A stretch of 58,085 nucleotides of DNA, filler included, from Sphacelaria rigidula (GCA_964200075.2; 5 parts of 5 records of this genome joined end to end with filler, not necessarily neighbours in it), one strand, 5' to 3'. Shown: positions 30,321-58,085, counted from the whole stretch's first letter. Translations and numbers: made by a program. Notes: a model not told the origin generated them from the sequence alone.

Positions 30321-30324
30321 TCTT

Positions 30325-35489: not shown

Positions 35490-35569
35490 CTAAGAAAACA
35501 GCAAACGCACACCAACAAACAGGACAGGGATGGGAGGAGAGGGAAGGGACGTACCAAATGAATTAGTGC

Positions 35570-35905: not shown

Positions 35906-36917
35906 TACACTAGTAGGCGAAAGATCTCAACACTCTAGCGTTCCATCGGTCGTTCCACTGCGGAGTGTACAACATGGCCGAATACGCCCTCAAACGCATT
36001 GAGGGATGTACTGTACGGCCACCAGGGAACAGGAGTCCCCGACGGTAGCCCATCCATGATACTAGTGGAGGCACTGCGAGAGTGTCTACCGCCGTGGGTA
36101 CTGGTGCGGGTGGAGATACTGCGCAGTATGTGCAGCAGCTGCAACGGAGAACTGCACCTGGTACGATGCAACGACGGTTGCGGGTTGGTTGGACAAAGCC
36201 ATATCCCGTATAGTCGGAGGCAGGATGAACTTTTTCAGAGGAAGAAGGGAGCGGGTCGTCCAACTCGAGGCTTGACAACCCAGCTGGAGGTGGTGTTGCG
36301 GTCGCAGGATTCTAGGACTCGGGAAAAGCGGGAGGGAAAGTGCTAGTCGGAAGGATAGAAGAAGCACGCAATGCGGTCATTCTGTCGGCTTCTGTGAGCT
36401 GGTTACTGTAAACCTCTGGGGGAGGCTGCAGAAATAATGATTCTGTAGGCCGGCTACTGTATCTGGCGGAGACGGCAGAAAATGAAAGAAGCGTTGGACT
36501 TGCGAGGAGTCGCGGCGCTGTAGTCATGCTTGCAGAAACGTCTGTACCATGTGCAATGGGAATGGACATTGTGGGAGCAAACGAAAAATCCTCCGACAAG
36601 TTTAGGTGGGGTTCGTGGGCTCGAGCTAGTTTTGACCCATGTTGAAGGTGATACATTCTGGGCCGACGTCATGCTCGCAAGGACGGTGACTGGAAGGCGT
36701 GTTTGATATGGGAATGGGAACTTACTCATGTTTGGGTTGAACGTTTCTGGGGACACGTGGACGCGTAAAATGCCTCGGATGAGATGAAAGGGGCAATGGA
36801 CGCACGGTTGGAGGAGCTGATGGGGCTTGGCCTTGTGCGCACAGGCAACGATTATATGTCGTTTGACGGAGGCTACTCAAGCATCGCATAGTGTCTAAAG
36901 CTGCGGTTATTTCTCTG

Positions 36918-37015
36918 TAGTACCGGGGGAGAGGTGGGTTGATCCCTTGAGACCACGGGCTCATCCCGAGGAAGGGGAGGGGGTTCAAAGTGCAACAAAT
37001 AAATGAATAAACAAA
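36918..37015 (+). mobile_element. 3' fragment of SINE family B with A-rich tail
   Basis: Matches 11835-11929. Confidence 0.7.
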
Positions 37016-37963
37016 AAAATATTTAAAAAAATACATGAAATAATCCCTGGAATCGTTTGTGACATTACTCTGCAGGTGAGACGAATCCAATATTGGGAAG
37101 TTCACAAAACAGCAGGTAGTCGGCGTAGACGACCAATTACAAATGCCTCTGAGACGTTTATACTACGCGATGATGCATGATGTCTCTGAGGGGTGAGGTG
37201 GGATGCTGTCACCCGAGGCTGGATAAGAGAAAAACCCACGCTCGAGTAGGAGGGCGATGGAGTCTAGAACTGTCATTTGAGGGTAGGTCAGGCAAAGCAA
37301 TGCTCGAGAGTAGTTTAGACTACAGTGTGAGTTTCAACAAGGGTTGAATTACGCCAGAGAATTTTCAGACTGGAGTTGAAAGCTTCAGAAGAGCAACTAT
37401 GGGTTACTGTCAATTTTTGTGGGCTGTATTCGACAGAAATGCTCGATAGAGTATAGACTGCGCTGTGCGAGAGTTGAAGAATATGAAAGGTTTGGTAAAA
37501 CGAGGCCCACGCCCGAGCTAGGGTGTAGTGGAATGTGTGAAAGCACTGCCACTTTTTACACGTGATGAAACAAAAAGGAGACATTCGTGTAAAGCGTTCA
37601 GTCTGAGAGTCGAGTTTTCATTATTGTTCATTTTGTGTTCGTGATGCTGCCCCCTAGTTATGTACGCTAACTTGGGGTGCATACGGTGCAACTGTGAACA
37701 GAAAACATTTTTTTTTTCACGACTGGTCTTGGTCGAGCAGGTTCGGATGGACAAAAATTTGCAACGGGTCGTATCTTCAGCGTTGACTTGCGGCATGTAA
37801 CAGTTAGATCCTGTCCGAACAGGATGGTCATATGGGTGCTCTGCCGCTATGACGGCACTGGCCCGCGCTGAGCAAGGTGCACGAAAGGCAGTGCACAAGC
37901 TGTGCTGCGTGAGCGAAAGACCGCTACGTATGTTGTTTGTGCTTATTTTCCCCCGGGGGGCTG

Positions 37964-38125
37964 AAAGAAAGGCGGGTGCTGTATCTGTGCCCGGATATTC
38001 TGATTTTGATATCTATGAAAGAAGGGCGAATACTGAATCTGTGCCCAGATATTTGGATTTTTGCATCTAGAAAAGAAGGGCGAATATTGAATCTGTGCTC
38101 AGATTTGTGGATCTTTATATCTGTA
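37964..38125. repeat. ~53-bp minisatellite, 3 copies
   Basis: aaagaagggcgaatactgaatctgtgcccagatatt at ~37965, 38018 and 38072. Confidence 0.85.
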
Positions 38126-41051
38126 AGTGTTCTTATCAGAGGGGATGTATCCTGCGTTTGCTATGATCGCTCTTGTGTAGACAGAATTAGGTCGTTAAGA
38201 GTTGAACTGAACATCTTGAAGCAGGGAGGTTGGAGCCGAGAATAAACCGCGGCTGGTATGACGATTCAGTATCCTTCGGGTATCCATGATCGACATCAAA
38301 CATTACGGAGAGAAAATATTCGGATGGCTGAGACATCTGCAGGATATCGAAATGTGTGTTGCAGAGGGGAAATATGGCATGTATACACGTTCACCTGTGT
38401 GCTAAGCCTGGCGATTACAGATATCATCTGTGTGGAGTGTGTCCTGAGCATGCTACTTCTTAAGGTAGCATTTTTGGAGGATCTGTGTACACGGTTTTTA
38501 CACAGGGTGTTTGTTATATGGAAAAGGGGAACTTACGGAAAATACTAGACAGTAGAACTTCATCGTGGATTTGATGAGCAGCGATGAATTCGGTTGTCAT
38601 GTGTTTCTCTTGTTTCCTTGTTGATCGTAAATGCGTTTATTCGCATACTGATTCCATGTGGGAGGATGTTAGTCATCGAATAAATGCATTCAAGTGGTGA
38701 AACAGAACAACAGCAAGTCGCCGTCGTTACGGTTCCTTGAGCGGATGGATCTTCGGAATAATGTTTTGCACAACAGGTGCAGGACAGTACATGTTGCATG
38801 GTCGATCCGTTCAGTAGCCATGCGCACTAACTCACTTCCTTGTTATTCATACAAACTGTTCATGCCTTTTTTGCATCTTAGTAAGCCATACCTCGTGCAT
38901 CGCACCGATACTGATGCATCGCCTATAACCTGCGGCCTGCGCTACGCTAGCAGGCGGAATATCTCGACAACCAGAACACAAAATCTTCACGTACGTCAAT
39001 TCAGAAACTACTCTTGGCGTAAGGTGCATACATGATTACATCGGGGCGACCTAACGGTGCAACACCTACAAGGGCCGAGTACTGGCACAGTCAGCTAGTA
39101 TACTGGCCCTGCCAGTACCTTAGGTCCGCAGCGGAGCCCAGCCAGACACCTCCCCGGGGGCGCACTTTCACGCGATTTGGTTTGAATACTATAGAGCAAA
39201 GAATAAAATCCGAATTCACTTATGGCGCAATTAGATGGGTTTCCGCTCACTAGTAAGGCGTTATAGTGGGGCGTATGTACATAGAAAAATACTGGCAGCA
39301 CTGGCTGCTCTATTTCCAGTGCCAGTGTGTGTGCTAGACAGCCATGCTGTTTTTGCACGCCGCTTCCTTTTATTTTCTCTTTTAACTCGGCGCGCGTGTT
39401 TCCATCGGCATATCACTGATAAACGTCAAGACAGATGCGCACGAACACGCAAACACACACCCAACAATACGGGCGCGGAAAAGAGGTTTTTCAGACTTCG
39501 ACAGACAAAACACACGCAACACGCCACTCGATCGCCAAACGCGAAAAAATCACGTGTATAAGTTACAATATATGTCAGTACATATGATGTGTACATATCG
39601 TACATACAGTACACAGACGACATACATAACATGGCATGTTACATATGTTCCATATCCCACTGATGCATTGGTTGCAGGACAAACAAGGCCTACTACGCTG
39701 ATGGATTCGGACCCCAGCGAACATCATGGTTTCCCACATCGTTTCATCTATCCGTCATATCCACATGTCTGGTCACTTCTCGTCATAGTCACGGTCACAT
39801 TTTGTCACAACTTTGTCAGTCACCACAACCATGTTTCAAGTAGCGGTGAAAATATTCATGTATTTTAGCCGAATCAAAACCGCCATAGTGCCATGCCACT
39901 GTCACAAGTCACACCACATCTAGGCAAGAATGTTTTTGCCCCGCCTGCATACGCGCATGTCCCCAACACATCAGCCAAAACCCTGCAGGTTACACGTCGT
40001 ACTGTCCACATCATGCATTTGCTCCTCCGATTGAGGATTTTCTCTGAAAAAAAAAAGTCACGGAATCGTCTCGTCTAAGTCTTTGCAAGTGTCGCTCAAT
40101 ATGCGCATGTCAACAGTCTGTGAAATGTCTCATATGTCGCATATATGGATTGGATTATTAGTAAAGTCGCCAGGTCCTGTTTCCAGGGGTTCAAATCCCT
40201 TGTCTTAGCTTCAGCGGAGTAGCCGGTTAACACCGCTGTAGCTGCGAGGGGTATGTAATAATGACCTCTGTATGATCTGACCCGTCTTCTGACAACACCG
40301 GGTTCGTCAACGGGGACCGTCACCCCGGGACTGTCAACCCCGGGACTGTCATCCTGCAATCCCCAGTCCGGGCTATGGTCATGCTCCGCACTTGGGGTGT
40401 CCATCCCGACGCCTCGCCGTCCGTCAGTACTACCCATGTCCCAAGCCCTGCTCTGCAAAGCTTACCCAGTCCAAGTCTACGTCGGGTCCCTGGACGCGCC
40501 GTACCCCTACCCGAGTGAGAAGCTACAACCTACACACACCAACTGTTTCGGGTTAGGTAAGCCACTTCTGCCGTCCACATGCCGGTATTACACGGGCGTC
40601 GACGGTAGGACTCTCAAACCTCGTGTTAGCTCGTAAATCAGAGTTTTTTTGTCTACTTCAAGCCCAGAGCCCCCGGCTCCTCCTCATCTTAGTTTAAGTG
40701 TAGCTGCTCGTGAACGTCAGCATCGGTGTCAGCTGGCCTGATTGATGCGCTCCACCTAATGTATACGTCGTCGACCTCAAGGCCGCTGGATACACCAATA
40801 TGTCGGCAGTAATGTCAAGTTCCCATCCCTGGGCTACCTCATCGGCTAGCCATGAAGAAGATCCGGAACGGAAACCTCATCGCTGATTGCACGGATCAAG
40901 GCAAGGAAGTCACCCTCGCTGCCATCCTAGCTGCAACAGCTGCGCAACACTAGAGCAAGGTTACCAGTACACAATGCAGTACAATAATACAACCAAGAGT
41001 GCACCGTCTGACACTTTCTACAATAGCCCCCTCCAAAAAAATGATCCGTCT

Positions 41052-41125
41052 CGAAAGGGATGCATGGTCAATGGTCAAACGACTAAGGCAAGCAACAAAT
41101 GAGTACGCCCCCCCCCCCCCCCCCC
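41052..41125 (+). mobile_element. 5'-truncated LINE 3' end followed by a poly(C) run
   Basis: tccgtctcgaaagggatgcatggtcaatggtcaaacgactaaggcaagcaacaaatgagtacg(C)n closely matches the reverse complement of 53405-53475. Confidence 0.85.
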
Positions 41126-41364
41126 AAAAAAAATGCATGGCTTCGCTACCTATCTGTGTACCGTTTTGGTACCCGACTGACAAGTCGTATGTCGCGGGTT
41201 ACTACTGTCGCCGCTGATTTCCGTCATTCATGCCAGTGTTGTCGACTCGAGTAAAGTGAAATTGATTCAACTGTGGCTCGAGTTGAAGTTGAATGTTATA
41301 TTAACGTCAGCTTCAAGGCTACCGTTTTCGATCAGTTGGCCTTCTGGGCAACCAAGCAAAGGTT

Positions 41365-41948
41365 TTTCCCCGTTTGCATTGTATTTGCGGTGACCATGAT
41401 GGTGGTCGAGTTAGATCATATTGTGCGGGGTGGGAGAATATTAACTCCGCGGAAAGGAAATGATCATACTACGTGGTATCTAAATGGTGGGGCACCCAGG
41501 AGTCAGTGTGGAACGCACGGCTGTCTCTGGAAGTGACGATACCAGTACATGAAGCAACTCATTCGAAGCTGTCATTGATACGAGAGATAATCAGTACGCT
41601 TCGGGCCGAACGATCTTAGTAGGATACAGCTCACCCTTCATGCGACTCGCCGAACACACCACGGCGCTTCGCGCTTGGTAATCGATTGCGAGCCTGGTCC
41701 GGCGAAAACCCGGCGTGCTACGTCCCGCCTTGGTAAGGATGCGAGGTCAATAATGGTCTCATGACTGATATGTAAAATCATGAATACCACGCCCCCTCTT
41801 GCCACCTCTCTCTCTCGTCTCTATTACGAGTAGGAACGGTGCTTCGTCTCGCAAGCGATACGTGGTCAATAGTCACAATGGTCTTATGACTATGGCATGC
41901 ATGATCATGAGTACACACACACACCCTCCCCCCCCGCCCTCCCCCCCG
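41365..41948 (+). mobile_element. Family C copy (41365-41797) followed by a LINE-tail/family-C-tail chimera (41815-41948)
   Basis: 41815-41873 matches the LINE 3' end (gtctctatta..gtagga.cggtgct.cgtctcg) and switches at caatggtc to the family C tail ending gagtacac...ccc. Confidence 0.75.
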
Positions 41949-42002
41949 TCAATGACATCCTCTACACACGAAGGAACACAAAGGAACACATATGCAACAC
42001 AC

Positions 42003-42131
42003 CTTAGCCTCGCAAGCTTTTATGAACAGCTTGGTCTTGACCCCTCCAGCAGCCAGCGCCCCCTGCACGATTTTGTCGTGCAGTCTGTTCATCACGCGAG
42101 GCACCAGCGGCATTACGGTTGGTCGCAGCGC
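42003..42131 (-). CDS. Long-chain acyl-CoA synthetase, internal exon
   Basis: gtgcag|ALRPTVMPLVPRVMNRLHDKIVQGALAAGGVKTKLFIKACEAK|gtgtgt. Contains the LxPT...VPR..NR..DKI motif. Phase 0-0. Confidence 0.92.
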
Positions 42132-43526
42132 CTGCACCACCAAATTCGTTTTTTTTAAACACGCGCACGAAACACACACACACACACCAAGGACAGTTTG
42201 GGGGAACACGAGCAAGTACATCCAGTCAACACGAAGAGCTGCGTTGGAAGATACAAAATCTGATTACAGTACACTCTTCACAGAGGCGCAATATGTTTCT
42301 GTAGGAAATGCCCCGCATACATCGATGGATACGAATATTTGGATCTGGAGCAGCGCGCTCAGAACGCTCGACACCGCTGGAACTGTATTCGCTCGCACTG
42401 CCTCGCCTGATCGCCGTCATGTATCAAAGACGAAATGGTGAAAAAACATATATCCTGTGGATAATGACCAGGGGTGGGTCCGTCAGGGATCAGTTGAATG
42501 TGTAATATCAATCAATCAAATCATTCAAAATCATTCGAGTTCACCAGCAGGTTAGGGCCTTGTTTTTACGTATCATTTTGCTACATCGGAGCGGTTCTAG
42601 ACGCAGCATTTACTGGGTTATCTCGAGTTTTCTCTTTTTTGCGACCGTAAACTTCGGTGAAATTCCCGAGGGGAAAGCCCCGAAGTATTCTTTTACGCTT
42701 CAGTGTGAACGAAGATTCGGATCTTTACGAGGTGAGCAGTCTCATGTACTCGCCGGTGTGCTCAAACACGTGATTTTACGCAAATCGGCGCCTGATCGGG
42801 CGGCGCCGACTTGAGCCCTACCACCACAGACTTTACCTGGAGTTCTCTCTGGAGTCCCCTGACCCAAAGATTACTGTGCAAAGTCTAAAGAACGACAAGA
42901 GCCACACGCGGAATCCTTCACCCGGATATCACCGGATAAAGCGGTCGAAGATTGAGTCCCACACCTTCTCACTCTTTCCGGGTGATTCGAAGGACTCGAG
43001 TCTCACTCATTCTCAGGGTTATGCGGAATAACTCGTAGGACTGAGTCCCCATGAGTCCAAGACCCGTTGGATGTGTGCATTTGTTCACGGTTTTTTCGCC
43101 ATACACTCAACCCCTCCGCTCCTGCGGAATGGGTCCACACTCTCGAGGAATTACGACCCATCTTCGCCCCAGTACATGACCAACATTTGGGCATGGCGAA
43201 TTGGACCGGCACTTCTGCACCCCGTCCGGTCGACGGTCGTCATACTTTCTCTCCTTCTTCCCACGTCTTCGCGTTTTCAACACCAGAAAGTCAGATTCTA
43301 CCCGAGCCAACAATATCTGTCGGACTTCGACACCACAACCTTCCGCCCTAGCTGGCTTTTCATGTATTATTTTGATTTGAATCACCGGGTCGCGGCGGCA
43401 ATGCTCGACAAAAGAGCGCAACATAGGTACTCGGGAGAAATGGGAGAAATGGGAGAAATGGGAGAAATGGGATGACCCTTCGAGACGACGAACTCGTCCC
43501 GAGGAACGGGGGGGGGGGAGAGGGTG

Positions 43527-43992
43527 TTGTACTCATGATTCTGCATGCCGTAGTCATCAGACAGTTAGCCTCGTACTCCTACAAAGCCGGGACGGAGCAC
43601 GCCGGGTTTTCGCCGGACCAGGCTCGCCGTCACCAGGCGCGAAGCACCGTTATGTGTTCGGCGAGTCGCACGAAGGGTGAGCTGCATCCTACTAAGATTG
43701 TTCGGCAGCCTCGAATGCGTTGCTTCATTCCTTGGCCTCGCCACTTTCAGAGACGGCCACGGGTTACACTGGGCCATGGGTGTCTCACCAGTGAAACACT
43801 ACGCGGTGCGATCATCCCCCTTGTGTGGAGTTACGGCTCTCCACCCCGCACAATATGGTCAAGTCGACCACCATTCATGGTTACCGCGAAATAACGCAAG
43901 CAACAAAGCAAACGGTGACCTGGTTGCCTAGCTTACGTAGTGAGTTGCGTGTTTTACAGCGTCGTTACTAACCGACGCCAACCCTCAAGCTA
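43527..43992 (-). mobile_element. Family C retroposon inserted into the G-rich 3' end of a SINE B copy (host 43425-43526 and 43993-44015)
   Basis: Host reads ...ctcgtcccgaggaac-GGGG...GGAGAGGGTG | element | GGGGAGGGGTG-tcgaaagtacgac, against the intact host cccgagaaaggggaggggttcaaagtgcgac. This gives an imperfect ~11-bp TSD. Confidence 0.75.
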
Positions 43993-44441
43993 GGGGAGGG
44001 GTGTCGAAAGTACGACAGTACATGTGCGCATGTACGGCAAGAAAGAAAAAAAAAAGAACATACGTTTACGCCAACTGGTCGATACTTCCAAGGTCAAAGA
44101 TACTGGTACTTTTTTTGTTCAACGTTAACCACAACCCTATCACAACTCAAGGCATCCCGAGGACCCGCGCGCAAGGGCGATGGATAGCTGATGTCCTAGA
44201 TCAAGTATGCGTTGGTAGCAGAGCTTTCAAATCGACGCCGGAGGCAACCGATTTGAGCCAAAATGCGTCCTGCACACGCTGTGCGGACACCTGCACCTTG
44301 AGACTCTCACCCTCAAAAGACCCGAATGTGGCAGTCTACGCCGGAAACCGGTATGCTTTTCAACCACGGATTCAATCGACCAGGTTACGCAAAACTTCCC
44401 GAGATCCGACAGAAAACGGGGGGGGTTGGCATATATGTCAC

Positions 44442-44516
44442 CTGCACGTCTTCAATAAGCAGCGTGGGGTCGCCCCTGAAGAAGCCGATCGCCGCGCCCT
44501 CACTAAACATGGGAAT
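44442..44516 (-). CDS. Long-chain acyl-CoA synthetase, internal exon
   Basis: ggacag|IPMFSEGAAIGFFRGDPTLLIEDVQ|gtgaca. The GAxIGFxxGD..L.ED motif joins ALRPT in phase 0. Confidence 0.92.
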
Positions 44517-45639
44517 CTGTCCAACCGCAAGACGAACAGTCCACATCGTCGTCAGTGCCTTGCGCAATACAATGCACTAGTGCTACTCCTCCACTAGCAG
44601 GTTCACAACACAGGGTACAGTAGTGATGTACGGTCAACCTGTGAACCACACTTGAACGCCGAGAGAGCCAACGACGTAAATGCGCTTGCGATTAAGTTTG
44701 TCGGGAAGAGATTGGCGATCTCTACCGTCAAAACCCTAATCGACCCTCGGCCAGTATCAACTTTGTGAAGCAGATACTAAAATGACGCTTGACCAAGAAT
44801 ATATTGTTGTTAGAGGGAGGAGGGGGGGGGGGGGGGGGGGGAGGGATACCAAAAAAAAAGCCGGGGGGGGGGTGGGTGGAAGGGTTGNNNNNNNNNNTAC
44901 GGGTTTGTTGGGTGGGGGGGGGGGGGGGGGGGGCGGGGGTGCTCAGGATACACTGACAAAACGCTGTGACGAGGCTGGGTTAACTGATGGGTTAATGAGT
45001 TAATTGACTGACTGCGTCTCATGAAAAGAGGTGAATTTTTCCCAGCTCAGTGACATTGTACCCATGGCTGATCATTTTTTAAATGATGCTACGCCCTCAC
45101 CCTAACCCCAACTCTAGGCATACCGAGAACCCTCAAGCAAGGGGGGTGTACTCATGAGCATGCATGCCATAGTCATAAGACGAAGGTGGGTGCAAAGGGT
45201 GCCCTATGCAAAGCGTAGGTTGGCAGCCCTGAAACCGGCACCTATGGAGCCGAATTGGCCAAGAACGCATTCTGCGCACGTTACGAAGCACCCGGGAATG
45301 TCCGACCCTCTGAATATCCGAATTTGGGCGTTCACACTCGAGACGAGTAGAAGCAACAATAAATAGATGGGCGCCGAATTACGACAAACTTTGCTGCATA
45401 TGTAATCCGATGCGTCACGTATCCTGCAGCGCGTGATCACTGGTGACTGGTGCCTCACTCACAAAATGGTCGTACCCGAGGTAAAAGGAATGAAAAACAC
45501 TCGCTTGAAGGAAAAGTCAAGCAGAGAAAGGACAACAAACAGCGAACGGTAAACAGCAGCAACAACAACAGGAGTAACGACCACGAATGACCTGACAAGC
45601 GGCATACCCCATAGAAAACTCATCGAGAATAACACCCCT

Positions 45640-45970
45640 CCCCGTCCCCGCGGTGAGACACCCAGGAGTCAGTGTGAAACTCGTGGCTTTCTCTGGAAGT
45701 ACCAATACCAGATCATGAAGCAAGTCATTGTAGGCGGTCATCTAAATGCATATTAATCAGTACGCCTTGGGCCGAAGAAAACAATATTAGTAGGATGCAG
45801 CTCACCCTTCATGCGACTCGCCAAACACATCACGGCGCTTCGCGGTTAGTGATTTGATTGCGAGTCTGGTCCGGCGAAAACCCGGCGTGCTCCGTCCCGA
45901 CTTCGTAGGGATGCGAGGCCAATGGTTTTATGACTACGGCATGCAAGATCGTGAGTATACCTCCGTCCCC
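45640..45970 (+). mobile_element. Family C retroposon, 5'-truncated
   Basis: Homologous to 41480-41797; ends gagtatacctcc. Confidence 0.8.
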
Positions 45971-46449
45971 GTGGTTATGCTTTGGTCAACCCTCGAGTTC
46001 TTCAACAGAGAGTAAATCCTAAATTTCCGAAAAGATTTCGTGCCCGAACGGATCTGAACAAGATCTTTCCGACGGCGCAAGTTTCGGGGGTCCCCATCGC
46101 CGCCGTTTTTTTTAGTAAATCGAACCTAAAAAAAATGCCACCTTGGGGAGGGGTAGTATCCCCCGTAGTTCATAGTAGTAGTAGCCAGACCACGTACAAA
46201 ATGGGTTCGCTGCTGCAAACGAGAATCACGAATAGCGTGCAATTCACGGCTACGTACGTCGGAGTATTGCTTGATCGTTCCACAACAAGTCGATGCACTC
46301 GAATACCGACAAGTTCCGGCCGAAGTGATTTTATTATGGAAACCCAAAAGTATGCGTAGTACATCCATGCGTGACGTCAGAAGCAAAAAAAAAAAAAATC
46401 GAAAAAATAAATATAACTCACAGTACGGGCAAAGGTGCACGCAGTTGCT

Positions 46450-46549
46450 NNNNNNNNNNNNNNNNNNNNNNNNNNNNNNNNNNNNNNNNNNNNTTAATTA
46501 ATTAANNNNNNNNNNNNNNNNNNNNNNNNNNNNNNNNNNNNNNNNNNNN
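46450..46549. other. Artificial scaffold spacer
   Basis: N44-TTAATTAATTAA-N44. Confidence 0.99.
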
Positions 46550-46623
46550 CGTCCCGGCTTTGTAGGGATGCGAGGTCAATGGTCTGATGACTATGGCAGG
46601 CATGATCATGAGTACACCCCCCT
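46550..46623 (+). mobile_element. Family C 3' end with C-tail at scaffold start
   Basis: gggatgcgaggtcaatggtctgatgactatggcaggcatgatcatgagtacacccccc. Confidence 0.8.
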
Positions 46624-46642
46624 ATCGTAGGATGACTCATTC

Positions 46643-49600
46643 GCTTGTCAGGGGGCATAGCATACGTGATACACGGGAGCACCTCACTCAGGCCAATAGC
46701 ACACCCGAAGCTTGACTTTGGCTATAAGCACGGTCTTCTGTCTATCCGCCCTCTCTTCAATGTGTCTTCCAACTCCGCCACAACAACTTCCAACGTCGAC
46801 TTCTTATTGACAATTAAAGTCCTCTCTTCCCCGCCCCTGTCTTCGCTTTCAAGCGTACCCCCGAGGCGACGAGAAATCTCTAGCTCGCCTTCCTCAACAG
46901 GCCAGCCCTTCCACCCACCTGCCTCGACTCCAACGGCCAGCCCTCCCACCCCGCGGCCTTTCGACCCCCTCGGATGCAAATTTCGCCCGCCACCACGCGA
47001 ATAATATCTGACGCACGGAGTATACCGCTCAAGGCGAAAACAAATCCCGACCTCGACTTCAATAAGCCAGCCCATCTTCCCCTTCCTTATCCGCATACGC
47101 CATTTCCGCCTGCCGCAAGACATACGACAGGTAGTACCCTACCTGGGGCGAAGACTATCCGCTACTTCGACTCACCCCTCAGCCAGCCCTCGCCCTTTCC
47201 CATCTGCTCTCCCATGCCTACATTACCCAGGGCGACAACAAATCTCAACTCCCTCACTGCCCCTTTCTGAGCGAATCCCGCTTGTCAAGGAGCATACCAT
47301 ACGTGATACACACGGGAGCACCCCACGCAAGCCAAAAGCAAATCCGGAGGTTGACATTGGCTATAAGCACGCTCTCCTGCCTCTCCGTCTTTTCTTTAAT
47401 GTGTCTTCCAAACACGCCACAACAACCTCCAACTTCGACTCCTTATTCACGATCAAGTCCCCCCTCTTCCCCGCTCCCGTCTCCACTTCAACTCGCATAC
47501 CACAGAGGCGACGAGGAATCTCGCAAGCTTGACTTCCTCAACAGGCCAGCCCTTCCCCCACGCGCCCGACTCCAACGGCCAGCCCTCCCGCGACGACCCC
47601 CCCCTTCCCCCTCCCCGATGCAAATGTCGCCCGCCACCATGCATACAACATTTGACACACGGAGTATACAACCCAGGGCGACAACACATCCCAACCTCGA
47701 CTTCCTCGACAAGCCAGCTTTTCTTCCCCTTCCCCATCCGCATACGTCATTTCCGCCGGCCGCAAGACATACGACAGGGGAAATCCTACCTAGGGCAACG
47801 ATCATCCGCAAATTCGACATCTGCATGAGCCAGCACTCTTCCTTTCTCACCTGCCCTCTCATGCCTACACTACCCATGGCGACATCGAATCTTAACTCTC
47901 TCACTGCCCCTTTCTAGGCGAACTCCGCCAGTCAAGGGGTACACCACACGTGATACACGGAGTATCTCACGCATGCCAAAAGCAAATCTAATGTTTGGTT
48001 TTCGCTACAAGCACACTCTCCTGTCTCTCCGCCCTCCCTCACATGCGTATGCCAACCACGCCACGACAAACATCAACGTCGACTCCCCATTCACGATCAA
48101 GTCCCCTCCCTTCCCCGAGCGCGTCTCCACTTCTACGCGTACACCACCGAGGCGACGTGGAATTCCAACTTCGGCCTCCTCAACACGCAAGCCCTTCCTT
48201 CCCCTTCTCCATGCGCATTCGTCATTTCCGCCTGCTTCGAGACATGCGATAGTATTCACATCGAGGGCGACGACCATCCGCAACTTCGACTTCACCACCA
48301 AGCAGCCCTGTCCCTCCCCCACCTGCCCTCTCATGCCTACACTACTCAGGGCGACAAAAAATCTCAAGTCCCTCACTGCCCCTTTCTGAGCGAACTCCGC
48401 CTGTCGAAGGGTATACCATACGTGATGCACGGAGTATCCTACGCAGGCCAAAAGCAAATCCGAAGATTGACTTCCGCTACAAGCACATTCTCCTCTCTCC
48501 GCCCCCCCTCACATGCGTATACCAACCACGTCACAACAACCTTCGCGACCAGAAATCTCGAGCTTGACTTTCTCAACAGGCCAGCCCTTCCCCCCACCTG
48601 CACCGACGCCAACGATCAGCTATCCCACTCCGCGGCCTCTCGCCCACCTCTGATGCAGATCTCGCCTTCCACCACGCATACAGCATTCGACACACGGAGT
48701 ATAACACCTAGGGCGACAACAAACCTCAACCTCGACTTACCCAACACGCAGAAGCCCTTCTTCCCTTTCCCCAGCCTTATACGCCATTTCCGCCGGCCGC
48801 AACACATACGACAGGGTAGTATCCCATCGAGGGCGACGCCCATCCGCAACTTCGACATCTCCATTAGCCAGCCCTCTCCCTTTCCCAGCTGCCCTCTCAT
48901 GCCTACACTACCCAGGGCGACATCAAATCCCAACTCCTTCACTGCCCCTTTCTAGGCGAACTCTGCTTGTCAAGAAGCATACCACACGTGATATATGGAG
49001 TATCCCTCGCAAGCCAAAAGCAAATCCGAAACTTGACTTCCGCTAGGAGCACACTCTCCTGTCTTTCCGCCCTCCTAACATGCGAATGCCGATCACGGCA
49101 CGACAAACTATAACAACGACTCCTTATTCACGATCAAGCCCTCTCCCTTCCCCGCCCCCGTCACCACTTCCGCGCGTACACGAAGCGACGAGAAATCCCA
49201 ACTTCGGCTTCCTCAACACACAAGCCCTTCCTTCCCCTTTCCCATCTGCATACGCCATTTCCACCTACCGCAAGACATATACGGGTAGTATCCCATCGAG
49301 GGCGACGCCCATCCGCAACTTCAGCCCCCTCCCCTTCCCACCTGCGATCGCTTACGTACGATACGCAAGGCGACAGCACACCTCAGCTCCCTTGCAGCCC
49401 TCTCCGATGCGAATCGCGCCTGCCACGAGGCAAACAGTATTTGGTATGCCAAGTATACCATCCGGGGCGACAACAACTCCCAAGCTCGACTTTCTCAACA
49501 AGCATGCCCTCCACCCTTTCCGACCACACTGCCACGCATCCATCACTCAGGGCGAGAACAATTCCCGAGCTCAAATCCTCCACAATCTAACCTCTTCCTT

Positions 49601-51000
49601 CCCGCCCCCTGTCCATAAAGAATGCCACAGGTGACAAACGAAGTGTCCGGCGAAGGTCCACAACGAACCACAAACACGACTGACTCCCTACGCAAGGAAG
49701 CTCTCCTACTTCCCCGCGTCCACTTCCACGCGAATGGTCCCCAGGTCGGCAAAATATATCAAGCTTGTTCTTCTCCACAAGCAAGCCGTTCTTCCGCCGC
49801 CTCCACTCACACACGTACGCCACTGAGGCCACATCAAACCCCGAGTTCGTCTTCCTCAACGAGTCACCCCCCTCTCTCAGGCCATTTGACCTCCATTTTA
49901 CGTATATTTTGCCTGCCACGCGGCACATAATAGGGTCAAGATTTGCAGGCACACAGTGCAAATGTACACCCAGAGATACAACCTCTCCCGAGCACGGCTT
50001 TCTCCCCACGCAAGCCCTCGTTCTCGTGCTCTGCCCGCCCTCACATAGCACTTTTGCATACCATAAGACTCACCATAGATGGGATGTGTTGCACACCACG
50101 CGGGGCGGAACGAATTTTCTACCTCGACCCCGTCGTCACAAGCAGATCCCCACCCTCGCCCGCTCCTCTCCCCTGCTCCTATGCAAAGTCCGCCCGACAC
50201 GAAACATACCATACATGACCGAGGTATTGTAGTATTTCACTCAAGGCGAAGATATTCGGCGAGCTCAACTTCCACAGACAAGCTCCCATCCTACTGCTCC
50301 CCGCACCTACATGTCGATGCCCCTTGCCATGAGGCGTACCGAAGATGATATACGCCGTGTACCACACACGACAAAACGAATTCGCTACCTCGACCCGCTC
50401 TCCACAAACACTTCCAACCTGTCCCCCCTCCCCTACCACGCGAATTCCGCCTTTCACACGGCATACCATAGATGATTGATGTAGTATATCACCCGGGGCA
50501 AAAACATTCCCCGAGCTCGACTCCCTCCGCAACAAAACTACTATTCCCCGGTCCTCTCCCCTATCCGCCAATTCCGTCTGCCACGAGGCGTACCATAAGT
50601 GGTATACGGACTATACCATTCAGGGTAAAACAAATGTTCATGCTCGACTCTCTCCACAAGTAACCTCTTCGCCCGTGTCCTCTGTCCCGATCTACTTGGT
50701 CTCTGCCAGCCGCGAGGCATATGAAATAGAACGGCCTCTTCCACAAGTCAGTCCTTCCACCTCCCCGCCCGCCCATCCTATGCTAGTTTCGCCCGCCACG
50801 AGGTGTACCGTAGTTGACTTACGTAGCACATCACCCAGGATGAAACAATGTTTTATGCCCGACTCTCTCTACACTCAAGCCTTTTCCTCTGCGCCCACTA
50901 CCCCTCTTCCTACCCTCATTCCGCCTGACACAATGCCTATGATGGTCATCCAGGGCTACAAAGAAGCCCAAGTTCGATTACCTCAACGTGCAAAGCGTCC
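46643..51000. repeat. Hierarchical C-rich tandem array: five 470-650-bp higher-order units decaying into ~125-bp monomers
   Basis: Unit starts (cgcttgtca..ggcatac.atacgtgatacacgg) at ~46643, 47279, 47925, 48398 and 48964. The first four units end cactgcccctttct(ga/ag). The internal motif ggcgac...ctcgacttcctcaac recurs and continues with ~125-bp spacing to ~50970. Confidence 0.9.
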
Positions 51001-53029
51001 CACTGCCCAAAAAATCCCGTTTCAGCCACTGCATCGGCTCGTTTTCTTAATGCCAGGTGAGCGATGTAAGGGCCACGTGACACAATACTACTGCGCACGA
51101 CACCACCTAAATTTTCGTCAAAGCAACACTTCCACGCTCGTGTGTGGGTGCGTGGTGTGGTGGGGCAAGGTCAACCGCTGCTCTTGACAACTCGTATGCT
51201 GTTGCCACTAAATGAACTGATCCGACGGCCACCATCACATCATGACACAAACAAGCTCGCGACTTTTTTGCCGGCTCGGAAGTCTAACTCAAAAACTGCA
51301 CCATTGATGCATATATCGTTTATGAACAAATCTTTTTCAGCTGCTTCTGCTCTCCACTTTCCTTTTCTACCATCATGTCTCAAGTTGACCGATATATCAA
51401 AAGGCCTTCACCACCAATTGTCTTCATCGCCTTCAGCATCAGAACCTCAGCTCCCCAACTAGGACGGTGAATGCCGCAGCTTGTAAAACGCACCCGACCG
51501 CCTCAACGGCCAGCCCAGCTGCCAGCATCACACCGTACACCGTAGTAGACAGAGCATCTGATGCGCGACCTCCACAACCGAGCTGAACATCAACCAACGA
51601 CAAAATAGGGCGGCGGGGCGGGGAGATGTTTAGCTTGTTTGGGTTTCATATCATTTCTCTTCGTTGTACGCCAACTTTGGCCCCTTTACCACGCAGATAT
51701 GTCCATCTATTGAGTCAGCATCACCTTTACTAGAACAATGAGAGTCATATGCATATCTCGACCCTGCAGCGCCGAAAGGAGTAACCCCCCCGCCGCTTTT
51801 CTCTGTGCGCGTTCGTCGTCCCAAATCCATGTCAATCACCTCACGAGACACACGACCCTCAAACAACAACAATCAATGATTGGATAAATAAAGACAGATT
51901 AGGAGTAAATCGAGGGAAACCAATCACCTCCCGACACTCGCGGAGCCTCATGCCGTTCTTGGTTCCGGCCTTTTTCTCCTCCGCCTCTCTTCCCTCTCCG
52001 CCCAACACACTACTTTTTTCCCTCCTCTAAGAGCGACTTCATTGGTCAACCACAGCGGCGAGGACGGCGGGGAAGCGCAACAAGAGATATACTGTGAGAA
52101 GGAAGAAGGAGAAAGAAGGAGAATGTTGACACATACGTTTCATATATACACACATTTACACATATACAGTTGTCGTCGATGCGACAATTGGTGCAAGGAG
52201 GATAGTCGCAAGGGGCGAACGGTTGTGGATTAGTTTGCCATCGTTACGTTTTCCGAAGGACAAGGAGGAAGAGGAGGAAGAAGAGGCGAAGGACAAGGAG
52301 AGGGAGGAGCAGGAGCAGGGGATGTGCTTGGCGAAGAGGGAGGGAAGTATACATGACACGGCTTGGTACAGCGTACTGACACACTTCCCTCTCCTCCTTA
52401 GCAGCGAATTTTCCCCTGACCTTGCTTCTCGCGGCCAAGTCTGACCGCGAACCTTTTGCCGGGTGTGGGCGGCGCCCCTCCCTCTGCGACGCGCAATTTC
52501 CCTCTTAAACCTTGTGGGGTCCCGTCGCCCCTCCACCTTCCGCCGCCTCCAACACCGAATGGCAACGCCAACGTACCCTTCATGTGAGCTGTTTTTGTGC
52601 GAGGACAGTTGTACGTGCAAACAGCAAACAATGAGACGAGCTGGTTGGTTTCTTCCATTTCACTGTATCCGACTTCTTTCGATTCACGCTACCACATCCA
52701 CCATCCTCAAGGCGCGGAGGTTATCGCCTAGCTGGTGGGTCGGGGAGGTGAAACATGGGACGAGATACCTGTGTATGTGTGTGCGAGAGATTATGGGGAT
52801 AAGGATGAACTCAAGTGAGAAGTGTGGACGGGTACAGCGCTGGAGCGCTGCGATCCAGCTTGGTGTCTCACGATACTCCGGTGACGGCTCGGACAGTGAC
52901 TCAATGACCCGAGGGGAGACGTTACATCCATCGCTTTTATGAGGACATTTTCAAAAGGTTGCGGAGGGAACGATATCCCGTCGCTCGTGCGTAGGCGTGT
53001 TTAGGCCAAGAATGTACCAATATTTATAT

Positions 53030-53105
53030 TGGGGGGACGGGGGGGTACTCATTCGTTGCTTGCCTTAGTCGTTCGACCATCAACCACGTGTCTTTCTCGC
53101 ATGGC
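53030..53105 (-). mobile_element. Short LINE 3'-end fragment with C-tail
   Basis: Reverse complement reads gatggtcgaacgactaaggcaagcaacgaatgagtaccccccgtcccccc. Confidence 0.8.
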
Positions 53106-53399
53106 TTCCATTGAGACGAAGGCCACGTGAAAACAAATGAAACAACACATTAGGAGCAAGACCGCGGTAGTAGGATGCGATGCAGCTATCTGGGGAGCAC
53201 ACTAGTGTAGGCAGGGAATCTCACTCACGCGAGCTCAGCAGGAGCGGGACGAACAATCTACGGGTAATACGTCCCTGAAAAACTAGTAGAAAATATACAT
53301 AAAAAGAAAGATGACGAAAATAAGAACATGAAAAAAAGCGTGGAGAGGGGGAAACCAAAAGGGAAGAAAAGGGAACTAGAGAGAGCGAGAGAGGGGAGG

Positions 53400-56340
53400 G
53401 GGGAAGGAGTACATATTTGTTGCTTGCCTTAGTCGTTCGACCATTGACCACGCATCCCTTTCGAGACGGAGCACCGCTCCTACACCTAATAGAGACACCC
53501 CCAACATTTAGGTGCCCATTACGTTTCTTCCATACATTACACAAAAACCGTTTACATATCTCATCCCCGTCCTGTTTCGCCAGCCATCGCTTTCTCGCTA
53601 CAGTATTGTCTAATGCATCAAACGGTGCCATGCCACCTTCCTTCACGTCCCGCATTTCCCTCCCTAGCACGTCCCGTTCCGCCTTGTGTAGTTCACATTC
53701 TGCCACTATAGGACTTCTGCTCTCTATTGCTTTGTTACAGAGGCAATTCTGTCCACCTTCTTCCTCGTCCTTTCGACGACTGGTGTCTATCCTCTCATCA
53801 CAGCTTCCCACAACGTTTCCCAAACCCATTTCTCCAGACTGTGTCATAAGCCTTGTGCACATCCAAAAAGAAACAGTGCGTTGTCAGCCTGGTGTCTTTC
53901 CTACCCTGAATAATCTTACTTAGTGTGTATAGTACAGATGGTCTACGCAACTACGGTTTGGTCTAAATCTTGCTTGTCCCTCGCTGATTTTCTCTCCCTT
54001 TTCTAGCACCGCTCCTACTCTATCGTTCAGAATCTTACAGAACGTTTTCCCTACCGTGCTCAGTAGAGTTACCCCTCTATAGTTTCCTGGGTCAGCCATA
54101 TCTTCTTTTTTGATAAGATTGACGATTACTCCTTCTCTCCACCTCTTGGGGTGTGTACTCGTTTTCCCAGATCCAGTTATACAGCACCCCATCATGGTAA
54201 TCACTGCCTCTCCCCCGTACTTTATAAATTCATTCACCATTTCGTCTGCCCCTGCTCCCTTTCTGTTCTTGAATTTAGCCACGTACTCCTTTACTTCATC
54301 TCTGGTAAACTCTCTCTGCAATTCTGTCGAGCCTCTTATCCTCCCGTTTTGACGTCTCTACATTTGCCTCTGCCCACGCGTTGATTTCGTTTTCGAATTC
54401 TATGTCTTACTCCGTGGTTGTTTTTGGTGTTCCTAGTTTACCGTAGTGCTCGACTAGCACTTCTCTCTTCCCCTTTGAAATACTGACCATTTTACCGTTC
54501 TGTGCCCCGAAGATAGCTATCCCCTTGTCTACCTTCCCTGCCTGGTTTCTCGTTATCCCCTTTATCCCTGTCCACATTTGTTGAATCCCGCCGTCGAAAT
54601 CTTCATTTGTTTTCTTCACTACACCTTCGCATACTCCCTTCTTTTTCTGCTGTGTCATTTTTTACTTCCTTTCGAGCTTCAGTATACTCCTCCCGTCCTC
54701 CCGTAGTTTTACTCGATATCCATCTCGCGTGGGCCTCTCTCCTTATTCTTATAACCTCTTTCACTTCCTCATCCCATCATTTTACTGCTCTATTGCATAC
54801 GATCAGTTTTGTCCCTATGACTTCACTCGCTGTGTTCTTGACCAGCTGCTCCCATCCTTCTACAATCTTCGCTCCTGCCCGATTTCTTTTCGGTATTGAA
54901 TGTTCCTAGGCGGCCCAACAACTCGGAAATGTTCAATGTACTTTTGGCCATCTTTTCGTGGAACTCTTGCCGGGTTTTTTTCATATCTAGTCCATCGATT
55001 CTCCATTTGTACAGCTTCCTACCCCGCCTATTCCAATTAGCTCTCGCCTGTTGGCCTTCTGTCCATGTTAGGCAATGATCTGTGGTTCCCACGTCCTCCG
55101 CACATACATGTACTTCCATTTCTTCACTATTCCCATGCTCTACCACTATATAGTCCAGAACAGAACGTTCTATCTCGTTTTTGCCTTTTCTAGCCCATGT
55201 CCATTGCGCCTCTGGCTTCAGTACTCTATCGTTCAGCGTCTTCATCTCGTTATGCTCAAGGAACTTCAACATTTCTACCCCAATCGAATTCTTATCTTCC
55301 CCGTATTGTCGAATGATATCATCCGGTTGACGTGCTCTTCCCTTTCTTGCATTAAAATCTCCCACTAACATTACTTCTCCTTACCTTTTATACTCACGTA
55401 CATCGGCGACTATCTCTCCAAACCTCCGTTGTATATTGTTCACCCTACTCTTCGATTCTGGGGGCATGTAAATGTTACCTACGAAGAATTTCTTCGTTCC
55501 CCGCTTTGCTGGTACTCTTAGCCATATGCTCTCGTCGAATTGCGTGTCGCCGATCACTTCTATACTGTCGCACAGATATCCCTTGACTAAGAATCCTACC
55601 CCCCCGCGCTCCCCTGCTCTTGAACTTTTGTCACTTCCGCTTCTTCCCTATCCATGCGTAACCTTCAACTTTGCATCCTATTTCCGCCACCTGTTTCTCC
55701 CATGACTCTTGGATTCCTACTATATCTAGGTCGTGTTTACCAACTTGTTGCGCTATTTCTTCTCTATTGCGCTTGTCCGTGACGAACTCACACACGTTCC
55801 ACGATCCTGTTCTTAACTTCCTTTCCGAATCATTATTTGCTCTCGTGTTGTCTACTGTTCTCTCTCCGTCGCTTTTTCTTCTACTTTCCCTTGCTTGGTT
55901 ATTCTTCCCGTTTCTGCGTTGGTCTTTGCCTATTTGCTTCGGGCCGCTATGTTCCCTCCCCTTCCCCTTTCGGACACTCGCCTGTTCCTGCCTCTCTTCC
56001 CCTCCGTTTACCCGTGCACTACGCCTTAGGTTTGTTACTCCGTCAGCGATGCTTACTTTCCGCCCGTACTCTTCCAACCCATGCCGACACGTTGCTGGTC
56101 TGTATCCTTTCCCATTCCTTGCCCGCGCTCTGTTTGATCGTGACTCGGAAGTGTTCTGCCTCCCTTTTTACTTTCCCTCCTGCCAAGCAGTATCGTCCAA
56201 CTCCATTGGATTTCATTCTAAACTCTATTCTTGCATATCCCTACGAATTCCGAATGCCAGCACTACAAGTACTTGACGCGTCCACTCTTTACTTCTCCAT
56301 CCGTCCTTCCTTACCGTCTCTATCTCGATCTACTTCGAGA
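53400..56340 (-). mobile_element. Non-LTR retrotransposon (APE endonuclease + RT + C-terminal Cys motif), decayed and internally deleted
   Basis: APE: GSWNV, DIVGIQESW, GGVGFLV, NIYMPP, VGDFNA, SVLDYI, TDHC. RT N-terminal part: KGAGADEMVNEFIK, PGNYRGVTLLSTVGK, QARFRPNRSCVDH, FFLDVHKAYDTVWR. The sequence then jumps at ~53800 to the C-terminus (CLC...ES...VAEC...VWKKR). QG and YADD motifs are absent. The 5' boundary is approximate. Confidence 0.93.
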
Positions 56341-57299
56341 TAATCTCAATCGTAATCATTACGAGTGTATTGGTGCGATGTAGTCAACGTACTGAGATAT
56401 CCCAATCCGAGTACTTGTTGGGGATCTGGTGCTTTTTAGTACTTTTGCTGGCTCACCGACACTAAATTATGCCTCCAACACGGGCTCGTAGCCTGAAGCC
56501 AAGTTCAACACCTTTGACACAGGTACCCCACGTTTGCGCCAGGCAATCTTCATGGTAAACCATCCAGGCGTCCTACGATCGTATCCTTTTATCTTCTTGC
56601 CCCGTTGCTGTACTGGTTAATTTCCTCCAGGGAAGTCATTTTCACCGTGTAAGGTGCCAGGGCTGCTTGAATAACATAAGGTCTTACTCACATCGAGATG
56701 TCCCGGACATCGCTTTTCCCACTCCGTGTATGGTTCACCATGGGTCGCTACTCCACTAATGCTTCCGAGTATACCTTCGCTGCCGAAAGGTTGGCAAACG
56801 GTTCCCCCACACTTTGTACCAGCTTCTATGCTTCAATATCTCAAGAAGTCTACGTACCGCTTGGTGCTCCTTCTCGTGGGTCATGTGGTCGGTCATCGGT
56901 AAGGTGTCTGTTTTATGAGTGCAGTACGTCTTGACGCTTACGTGACGCCCTCCCTCCATTGGGCGCTTTTTGCACATGATGTCGGAAATTTCAGGAAAAT
57001 GGCAGACCAGACTTTCACCGCCCGATGGAAACCGGTAAGGTTTTACGGGTATCTCACCACGAGACCCCGACTTCCATATGAATTCAACATGGAGGGGGTA
57101 ATGAACCTACCTTATCTGTACTGGTTATATCTTCTGTACTTTCGATTTGCATGTAAGGTGGTCAACCTTCACGCTTTTTCTTACTTGTCTAGGTTTTGGT
57201 TTTATTCTTGTCTTATCTTTGTTTTGATGGGGGGAGGGGGGGAACATCGGTTGTTTCCCGTCTTGATATGGGAAAGTATATATGTATGATTTTTTTTAC

Positions 57300-57830
57300 T
57301 ATTCCACGTCTATGTTCGGACTGTGCCATGGTAGTTTAAAAAACAAGGAGGGTCAGCTTCTTTATTTCATGTCCATGACCGAGCTGTGTTATGGCAGGTT
57401 GAAGAAAAAGGAGGGTCAGCTTCTCTGTTTCATATTTATGTCCGGGCTGTGTTATGGCAGTTTGAAGAACAAGGAGGGTCAGCTTCTCTATTTCATGTCT
57501 ACGTCCGGGCTGTGTTATGGTAGGTTAAATAAAAAGGGAGGCTTAGCTTATCTATTTCATGTCTATATCCGGGCTGTGTCATGGTAGGTTGAATAAAAAA
57601 GATGGTTAGCTTCGTCATTTCATATCTATGTCCGGGCTATGTTGTGGTAGGTTCAAGAAAAAGCAGGGTTAACTTTCTGGTTTCATGTCCATGTTCGGGC
57701 TGTGTTATGGTAGGTTAAAGAAAAGTTAGGGTTAGCTCTTCTATTTCATGTCCATGTCCGGGCTGTGTTATGGTAGCGGGAAAAAAAAAGAAAAAAAAAC
57801 AGCAGCTTTGTTATATCATGTCTGTACCTG
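57300..57830. repeat. ~63-bp minisatellite, ~8 copies
   Basis: ttcatgtctatgtccgggctgtgttatggtaggtt...agggtcagctt at ~63-bp spacing. Confidence 0.93.
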
Positions 57831-57975
57831 TATTGTGTTTTTCTGAGGGGAAAGAAAATTGGTTATTCATGTTTTTGCATGTCTGGTGTGTTTGTCGGTC
57901 CAGGACCTTATTTTGTCCAGTGGCGATTTATGGTACAGGTACGGTGACAGTCTGTGCATTTCATGTCTAGGTTCT

Positions 57976-58085
57976 GGTGACTTGTTTTACAGCGTCGGTG
58001 CCACTCGACACCAACCCAAGAGTCTTGACGTGAGGATGTACTCATGATCATGCATGCCATAGTCATCAGACCATTGACCTCGCAT
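57976..58085 (-). mobile_element. Family C tail joined to a family C head fragment at scaffold end
   Basis: Minus strand reads ...gactatggcatgcatgatcatgagtacatcc (tail), then ttgggttggtgtcgagtggcaccgacgctgtaaaacaag (head). Confidence 0.7.

Follow-up and report, generated by a model that had tools for sequence, protein, structure and literature searches.

The analysed stretch of Sphacelaria rigidula DNA (GCA_964200075.2; 58,085 nucleotides, hereafter the window) contains a long interspersed nuclear element (LINE) and a dispersed family of short elements, family C, whose copies share with the LINE a hairpin-bearing 3′ module followed by a run of cytosines. We consider it probable that the two represent an RTE-X-type LINE and a non-autonomous partner that is mobilized in trans, with the hairpin module and oligo(C) tail held in common. 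The window comprises five scaffolds of ~11.54 kb separated by N spacers (1-11539, 11640-23177, 23278-34813, 34914-46449 and 46550-58085). Public sequencing runs that have words in common with the region bear the labels algae or protist metagenome, or coded names of organisms. An original prediction had described a LINE and its partner sharing a 3′ stem-loop and ending in C rather than A, and the evidence that now bears on that proposal is presented below.

A shared 3′ module followed by oligo(C)

The 3′ module consists of GGGATGCG-GGTCAA, the hairpin TGGTC-N4-GACTA, and GAGTAC, occurs in 11 copies within the window, and forms part of ~70-90 nt of 3′ sequence common to the LINE and family C. 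The string GGGATGCGNGGTCAA, allowing up to two mismatches, was matched seven times against an expectation of 0.37, and none of 100 shuffles reached that number. The hairpin itself, allowing one mismatch, was matched 13 times against 3.2 expected; ten of these matches are tails and the other three (19648, 46179 and 50600) are chance occurrences, while the eleventh tail belongs to family C copy C, with a stem broken at 43550. The family C members are located on three scaffolds at the places originally given, and the description of their hairpins was accurate as well, in that the stem is kept in most copies, the member at 45175 is truncated, and the loops read GAAC, AAAC, TTAT, TGAT, or TCAT. Kinship between the two families at their 3′ ends, as first proposed, is borne out by a match of 78% over 68 nt between family C and the tail of a LINE copy from another assembly, L003 (E 1.2e-5 in a 20-kb search); the shared hairpin shows covariation, described in the next section.

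The module is regularly followed by cytosines. In nine of the 11 window tails, the 20 nt next to the terminal GTAC include a C-run of at least five. When all GAGTAC sites of the window were tabulated as a control, a C-run of at least six was found within 20 nt after 6/7 hairpin-linked sites versus 1/36 others (Fisher p = 7.9e-6), and the sole exception among the latter (34981) is itself a tail remnant. Likewise, the three LINE copies known from other assemblies all read GAGTACG and then C8 (L001), C10 (L002), or C13 (L003). No window copy ends directly in an A-tail, which agrees with the first description. The 3′ module and its C-tail are confirmed as a real feature of these elements.

The same pattern is seen in Logan contigs of four runs, which were aligned to 40900-46449 at 80% likeness and in which the repeat bins reach a summed depth of 1e5-5e6, relative to ~30-70 for unique sequence. 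Among the rows listed (24 of 6843), loose ends extend beyond the LINE tail (place 41125) in 1026, 1094, 96, and 377 contigs of the four runs, and the corresponding counts for the family C tail (41916) are 471 and 479. Taken position by position, the consensus of these ends stays C over 13-28 letters (agreement 0.35-0.47); run lengths in such k-mer contigs are unreliable, and the figure shows only that C comes next.

It had also been suggested that these tails could be one source of the many G/C runs in the genome. Tails are indeed such a source, but not the main visible one: a recognizable tail directly precedes 7/29 window C/G runs of at least seven and 2/10 of at least ten, and most of the long runs stand without a visible tail. 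Long runs lacking a recognizable upstream tail include 34728-34751 (C24), 44822-44933 (two C20 runs around a 10-N gap), and those at 5813, 13252, 30460, and 30619 (C10-C12). Three of these long runs have CCCTT in front of them, and the group may consist of tails from other families or of copies truncated to an extreme degree.

The hairpin lies within the coding region and covaries

In L001, L002, and L003, the LINE open reading frame (ORF) ends in ...GCVVNGQ(M/T)TKASNK, and its stop is the TGA inside AAATGAGTAC. A TGA within GAGTA terminates the ORF in all three lineages that could be compared, such that the 3′ untranslated region (UTR) is only ~4-5 nt long, plus the tail. The hairpin is thus formed by the last codons of the ORF and is coding sequence. 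In this respect, the original prediction was right about a conserved shared stem-loop but not about its place, which is the end of the ORF rather than a 3′ UTR or tail.

Beyond the window LINE and its close copies (lineage 1), relatives only 36-49% identical in protein share the terminal module. Lineage 2 (L004, L006, L008-L011, L013-L015, L017, L019, and L020) reads ...GCGTGGTCAA-TGGCG-TAAG-CGCTA-CGGCAGCAACATGAGTAT, and lineage 3 (L005) has the hairpin TGGCA-GAGA-TGCTA. The stem has therefore undergone compensatory changes across the three lineages, from GTC/GAC to GCG/CGC and GCA/TGC. In an alignment of 23 tails, 95.5% of 110 cells are paired, with two of the five pairs changed on both sides (19 cells); none of 500 shuffles gave pairing as high, and a slid partner strand gave 23-58%. 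The peptides encoded over the hairpin differ by lineage (QMTKASNK, VSATAAT, and RDAMAAHS) while the stem is kept, which argues that the constraint acts on the RNA and not on the peptide.

Tail repeats of sister lineages and a target-site duplication

In lineage 2, the stop codon is followed by GTAT and then by (ATT)2-4, once by (TTTA)n, with 11 of 15 copies beginning ATTAT. The lineage 3 tail (L005, 3132-3290) is composed of about six tandem units of ~26 nt (ACAAGTGTCTCAT...GGCTATAT...). The (C)n of lineage 1 occupies exactly the position of the lineage 2 tail repeat, and it is best read as the lineage 1 form of the variable simple-repeat tail that would be expected of a 3′-specific LINE.

One insertion, a 5′-truncated LINE tail at 41044, is framed by a clear target-site duplication of 17-18 nt. 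The 5′ copy (CCCCCTCCAAAAAAATG, 41027-41043, + strand) matches 41118-41135 (+), where the last C's of the run are followed by AAAAAAAATG. The C18 at the 3′ end exceeds the C-run of the 5′ duplication copy by ~10 C, implying that the target began with a short C-run and that some ten further C's were brought by the insert or arose by slippage. This arrangement fits the priming of reverse transcription by the G-run of a nicked strand on a C-tail. No clean duplication was found for copies A and C of family C, the LINE tail at 53097, L001, or L002, which have C-rich flanks or 5′ ends beyond the contig.

Anatomy of the LINE

The element is a non-LTR (long terminal repeat) retrotransposon with an endonuclease located N-terminal to the reverse transcriptase (RT) in a single ORF of ~1400 amino acids (aa), which also has a long N-terminal part and a C-terminal Cys/His motif. 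Intact ORFs are found in L001-L003, which represent the same LINE (73-80% protein identity) and encode at least 1253, 1426, and 1382 aa, respectively. In the 1426-aa ORF of L002, Pfam identifies Exo_endo_phos at 235-461 (E 6.7e-13) and RVT_1 at 807-1056 (E 1.1e-30). L001 and L002 were obtained by a pattern scan of metagenome contigs, and L003 and 28 further loci by a protein-profile scan of genome contigs, 28 lying in mis-binned "bacterial" metagenome-assembled genomes (MAGs).

The longest window copy (53376-58020, - strand) carries frameshifts and an internal deletion, apparently extends to its own 5′ end, and is identifiable through its ORF pieces, its Pfam matches, and an 81% identity over 3477 nt to the intact LINE of L002. 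From 5′ to 3′, it comprises a 5′ head (CTTGGGTTGG...GACGCTGTAAAACA..., 57976-58020, -), which aligns with the 5′ end of family C and is the single LINE 5′ end available; 63-bp tandem repeats (57296-57790, -; period 63, 7.6 copies by Tandem Repeats Finder) within a 5′ region, similar to the repeats in which L003 starts; an apurinic-type endonuclease region in two frames (54823-56167, -), with weak Pfam matches to Exo_endo_phos and Exo_endo_phos_2; the translated N-terminal part of the RT (53920-54357, -), the remainder having been deleted, as homology to reverse-complemented L002 breaks between 3439 and 4611; a C-terminal ORF piece (53409-53883, -) that runs through the hairpin (53430-53443) to a mutated terminal ATATGTAC; and a degenerate C/CT-rich tail (53376-53408, -). 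The LINE 3′ end originally given for 53400-53475 proved to be a composite. The locus actually reads ...AAATATGTAC-TCCTTCCCCCCTCCCC (ATATGTAC-TCCTT-C6) and is degenerate, whereas the clean form, GAGTAC plus a C-run, is present in the 5′-truncated tails at 53031-53097 (-; hairpin 53066-53079, GAGTAC, C6-GT-C6) and 41044-41125 (+; hairpin 41072-41085, GAGTACG, C18 at 41108-41125). The insertions at 41044, 53097, 45183, 41352, and 45652 are 5′-truncated.

A further 3′ fragment, H (41817-41947, +), belongs to a second LINE subfamily: LINE ORF-like sequence upstream is joined to a hairpin (41879-41892) and an end of family C type, followed by a tail of (CA)5 and C-rich sequence. Upstream of 41817, among the rows listed, 56 contigs of run X3 have loose ends with LINE ORF sequence.

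Among 157 relatives found, the closest named ones are proteins of Ectocarpus sp. CCAP 1310/34 (59-66% identical). They point to a brown alga or a near relative as the host. Indirect pointers, namely these nearest named relatives and the RTE-X elements with a ~600-bp partner listed in the main text of the Ectocarpus study (PMC12477816), make the window LINE a probable member of the RTE-X clade. The ESM Atlas returned only generic endonuclease and RT clusters for the LINE, the viral contig scans yielded no copies, and the bin behind L003 yielded no tail beyond that single one. In the genome contigs, one MAG labelled Nitrospirales, with contigs of up to 2.8 Mb, holds dozens of eukaryote-type LINEs with endonuclease, RT, and (ATT)n tails (L004, L006, L008-L011, L013-L015, L017, L019-L023, and L025-L031), and either the bin or the record as a whole appears to be AT-rich DNA of a eukaryote under a wrong label. 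Eukaryotic LINEs are also found on L005, from a Nitrososphaerales MAG, and on L003, from an "uncultured bacterium" bin.

Anatomy of family C

Family C is a discrete, non-autonomous partner of ~0.5-0.6 kb. Copy A (29441-30031, -) is full length at 591 nt and has a C-rich tail, with CT/C-rich sequence (30032-30057) just upstream of its head. Copy C (43508-43989, -) has a full 5′ end, an internal gap, the broken hairpin already mentioned, and a C11 tail, with C-rich sequence upstream (43990-44003). Copies B (41352-41796, +; C5) and D (45652-45970, +; a weak C-rich tail, C4) are 5′-truncated. The remaining members are the tails E (46550-46622, +; C6), cut by a scaffold start; F (58037-58085, -), cut by a scaffold end and located 16 nt upstream of the LINE head; and G (45141-45183, -; C6), truncated inside the hairpin and with head-like sequence directly after it; together with a tail remnant (GAGTA plus C8) followed by a family C head that is cut by a scaffold start (34914-34990, -).

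Copies A and C share an identical start base, with their head seen again at 34962 and 45134 and also in L003. The body of family C gave no blastn match to the three LINE copies beyond 40-68 nt of tail; its longest ORFs (113 and 128 aa) lie on the opposite strand, and no sizeable sense ORF is present. The window has a single LINE 5′ end (58020-57976), and its alignment with the initial ~45 nt of family C suggests that family C may copy both LINE termini. The second LINE subfamily, exemplified by fragment H with its hairpin and end of family C type, is probably its true partner.

The original prediction spoke of a LINE-SINE (short interspersed nuclear element) system. The existence of a non-autonomous partner is upheld, but the partner is not demonstrably a SINE: no tRNA-, 5S-, or 7SL-like head was seen on family C, ARAGORN found no tRNA in the window, and no Rfam family reached its gathering score there, while a search over copy C at E up to 5 gave one match, at chance level. 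Matches to A-box and B-box consensus motifs were absent from the first 200 nt of copies A and C. Three other identities were considered and set aside. A hammerhead or retrozyme, brought to mind by CTGATGA in two hairpin loops, was rejected since the motif is not conserved in other copies and no ribozyme family of Rfam matches at E up to 5 over 43450-44050. A Helitron, brought to mind by CTAG before two heads, was rejected since CTAG is not conserved elsewhere and the tail's sense is known from the LINE ORF. Finally, an internally deleted LINE was rejected for lack of similarity in the body.

Clustering around C-runs

Copies of both families are gathered about C-runs. C-rich sequence directly precedes five of six heads (A, C, G, 34962, and L003; the LINE head behind tail F is the exception), and at four of those five a recognizable tail precedes the C-rich stretch. 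In the Logan contigs, a same-sense joint leading from 41126 to 41045 (tail to tail start) is found in 32, 50, 5, and 3 contigs of the four runs, and another from 41916 to 41045 in 33, 42, 2, and 14. Among the rows listed, a C-run stands before 5′-truncated family C (43624) in 260 contigs of run X5. Such clusters would arise because old tails are reused as targets; template switching between RNAs is an alternative.

Proposed mechanism and competing explanations

By analogy with "stringent" LINEs, the LINE's own RT may recognize the hairpin module in the RNA. Synthesis of cDNA would then start in the simple-repeat tail, which would pair with the nicked target strand, in this case a G-run. C-runs, and above all old tails, would be reused as targets, generating tail-to-head and tail-to-tail clusters and leaving new copies flanked by C-runs. 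Family C would be copied in trans by means of the same 3′ module and tail, and the ~45-nt 5′ head of the LINE is apparently present in it too. This scheme presupposes that the C-run is part of the transcribed RNA. A stronger version of the proposal holds that the oligo(C) is an element-borne LINE tail priming the RT on G-runs, that it is the first homopolymer tail other than poly(A), and that sister lineages in apparently very different hosts have switched between (ATT)n and (C)n; we regard it as tentative, and its chances as slightly short of even.

Several observations weigh against these proposals. Two window tails, D (45959, C4) and F (58037, none), have no C-run of at least five, and only one clean target-site duplication was seen. 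The C-runs that precede 5′ ends fit insertion into pre-existing C-runs equally well, and letters may be hidden between the two sides of the contig joints. The fold energies of the tails are ordinary (z -0.69 to +0.80), and the minimum-energy fold contains the 5-bp stem in 3/3 LINE tails and 0/3 tails of family C type. In the latter (41879-41914, 46580-46615, and others), the loop and 3′ stem can pair with downstream ...CATGATCATGAG in a competing hairpin that is longer and is not available to the LINE-a tail. The covariation is drawn from three lineages and thus reflects few independent events, and some old copies within lineages (43550, L015b, and L020) break the stem. Lastly, the suggestion that family C copies both LINE termini comes from a single LINE 5′ end.

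The principal competing explanation is that the C-run belongs to the target, the LINE being site-specific for (C)n/(G)n and its RNA ending at GAGTAC(G/A). Consistent with this, C-rich sequence is found not only before most heads but also before many 5′-truncated copies (loose ends at 41045 and 43624), the sole clear duplication starts with C's, and 22 of 29 C/G runs of at least seven do not adjoin a tail. On the other hand, the run 3′ of the 41044 insertion is longer than its counterpart in the 5′ duplication copy, the variable (ATT)n at the homologous place in sister elements is usual for an element-borne tail, and in each of the three copies from other assemblies the C-run comes straight after GAGTACG. 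We judge this explanation unlikely, although it deserves to be kept in mind, and since C-tail priming on G-runs predicts both patterns, a target origin and an element origin are not mutually exclusive. Very little probability is assigned to the idea that C-tails are added to the RNA post-transcriptionally by a nucleotidyl transferase and then copied in the manner of L1 poly(A). Nothing direct speaks for it, although C-rich tailing of mitochondrial mRNAs is reported from another alga (PMC5727444); the trinucleotide repeats of the sister elements at the same place look templated, and mixed tails such as (CA)5 plus C-rich sequence or C6-GT-C6 resemble copied DNA rather than a fresh homopolymer.

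An equally improbable view, which the original prediction had itself named as damaging, is that family C is merely the 3′ part of a second LINE subfamily, represented by 5′-truncated copies. Fragment H does show that such a subfamily exists. Nevertheless, the fixed start shared by copies A and C, the recurrence of their head, the body without a LINE match, and the antisense position of the longest ORFs all speak for a separate element. Moreover, among the rows listed, most Logan contigs that match the hairpin of H have family C upstream rather than LINE sequence (845, 1012, 262, and 277 contigs), and Ectocarpus has a counterpart of ~600 bp according to the main text of PMC12477816. Finally, there is hardly any chance that the C-runs are sequencing or assembly artefacts, such as homopolymer G calls. 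Long homopolymers do break this assembly, the 10-N gap at 44888-44897 sits between C-runs, and run lengths are not dependable in k-mer contigs; yet the C-runs are internal to contigs, with unique sequence to either side, and always come after the tail in its sense orientation. Three other assemblies and four sequencing runs contain them as well, and one is framed by a target-site duplication. The reading that we prefer remains an RTE-X-type LINE with a trans-mobilized partner.

Relation to known elements

Several features of this pair are familiar from other retrotransposons. UnaL2/UnaSINE1 of the eel and the CR1/L2-type LINEs have a conserved 3′ stem-loop and a short, variable repeat tail, and their own enzyme recognizes the 3′ end. 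The window pair resembles them in having a 3′ stem-loop common to LINE and partner, followed by a variable short-repeat tail, but differs in that the LINE stem-loop is coding, the repeat unit is a single C, and the partner lacks a Pol III-type head. RTE-clade LINEs such as RTE-1 and Bov-B possess a single endonuclease-RT ORF, a very short 3′ UTR, simple-repeat tails, and SINE partners that copy the 3′ end. All of these have parallels here (one ORF, a very short 3′ UTR, a simple-repeat tail, and a partner copying the 3′ end), whereas the window LINE has a longer ORF (~1400 aa) with the long N-terminal part and the C-terminal Cys/His motif. In L1/Alu and in microsatellite-inserting LINEs, the tail pairs with the nicked target, and old tails or matching simple repeats are preferred targets; a similar preference for old tails would explain the clusters of one orientation seen here, although L1 differs in its poly(A) and its relaxed 3′ recognition. 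Microsatellite-targeting LINEs use di- to tetranucleotide repeats and are not known to use C-runs, and nearly all LINEs end in poly(A) or in AT-rich repeats of short unit.

The closest match is found in another brown alga. In Ectocarpus sp. 7, the main text of PMC12477816 (Genome Biol 2025) describes the RTE-X LINEs RTEX-1_Ec32 and RTEX-2_Ec32 and a very abundant, non-autonomous element of ~600 bp, RTEX-N1_Ec32, which resembles RTEX-1 and RTEX-2 at the 3′ end alone and has a 5′ part whose source its authors could not trace; the LINE clades it reports for Ectocarpus are CRE, RTE, RTE-X, and unknown. The likeness to the window pair lies in a LINE and an abundant ~600-bp partner sharing a 3′ end, and very probably the two are the same system, meaning that the pair as such is already known. 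Family C would then be homologous to RTEX-N1, to which it was matched by description and not by sequence. The original prediction that the system might be undescribed can thus be retained for the C-tail, of which no printed account was found, but not for the pair. The main text of PMC12477816 mentions no tail composition, hairpin, or shared 5′ head ("poly" appears only in polyprotein, polymorphism, and Polycomb, and "homopolymer" has 0 matches), while its Fig. 1C ("terminal motifs") and supplementary annotation notes may show them. Literature searches returned no C-tailed LINE or SINE and no account of RTE-X C-tails, although "poly(C)" printed with parentheses may escape such a search. What appear to be new are the oligo(C) tail, the covariation of a hairpin held in common with distant lineages whose tails consist of other repeats, and, more tentatively, the shared 5′ head.

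Other features of the window

Several unrelated features were also recorded. A 142-bp satellite (14980-17448) consists of 17.7 copies with 83% matches and has a strongly A-rich strand (AT skew ~0.5). Large repeats, either tandem or dispersed, occupy 46642-49322, where blastn aligns the sequence to itself at offsets of ~640-1040 bp (79-81% identity), C strongly outnumbers G (skew -0.29 to -0.40), and the ORFs have no Pfam match. A direct duplication of 1107 bp (98.9% identity) is found within one scaffold at 18155-19261 and 20669-21775. The ORF at 2308-3147 (+) has a weak match to the rve integrase core (E 1.6e-6, below the Pfam cut-off) and is probably a decayed LTR or DIRS-type retroelement; this integrase fragment was the only result of a Pfam search of ten other window ORFs, which thus yielded no host gene. 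Adjoining family C copy A is an inverted repeat of ~97 nt (89% identity; 30141-30236/30327-30423), related to sequences at 31499-31598 and 31554-31682, which is possibly a small DNA transposon. Finally, a string resembling a relict spliced leader, GCATTTTGGCTCAAA, is present at ~44262-44276 (-). It had brought a dinoflagellate host to mind, an idea given up in view of the Ectocarpus proteins among the LINE's named relatives.

Implications

The coexistence of a (C)n lineage and (ATT)n relatives with the same hairpin indicates that the identity of the tail can change while the recognition module stays. Such a tail switch offers a way to study what determines the starting point of reverse transcription and, if true, would make the clade a natural experiment on start-site choice. 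An RNA hairpin that is kept inside a coding region while the peptide changes clearly illustrates, in addition, how two constraints can overlap. Were the shared 5′ head confirmed, it would account for the origin of the 5′ part of RTEX-N1-type elements, a question left open in the main text of PMC12477816. For brown algal genomics, these elements are among the most abundant repeats, and their C-tails cause breaks in short-read assemblies; they also give rise to homopolymers and to hot spots of insertion. Should the stronger version of the proposal hold, the elements would continually add G/C homopolymers to brown algal genomes, and with them potential sites for G-quadruplexes and i-motifs.

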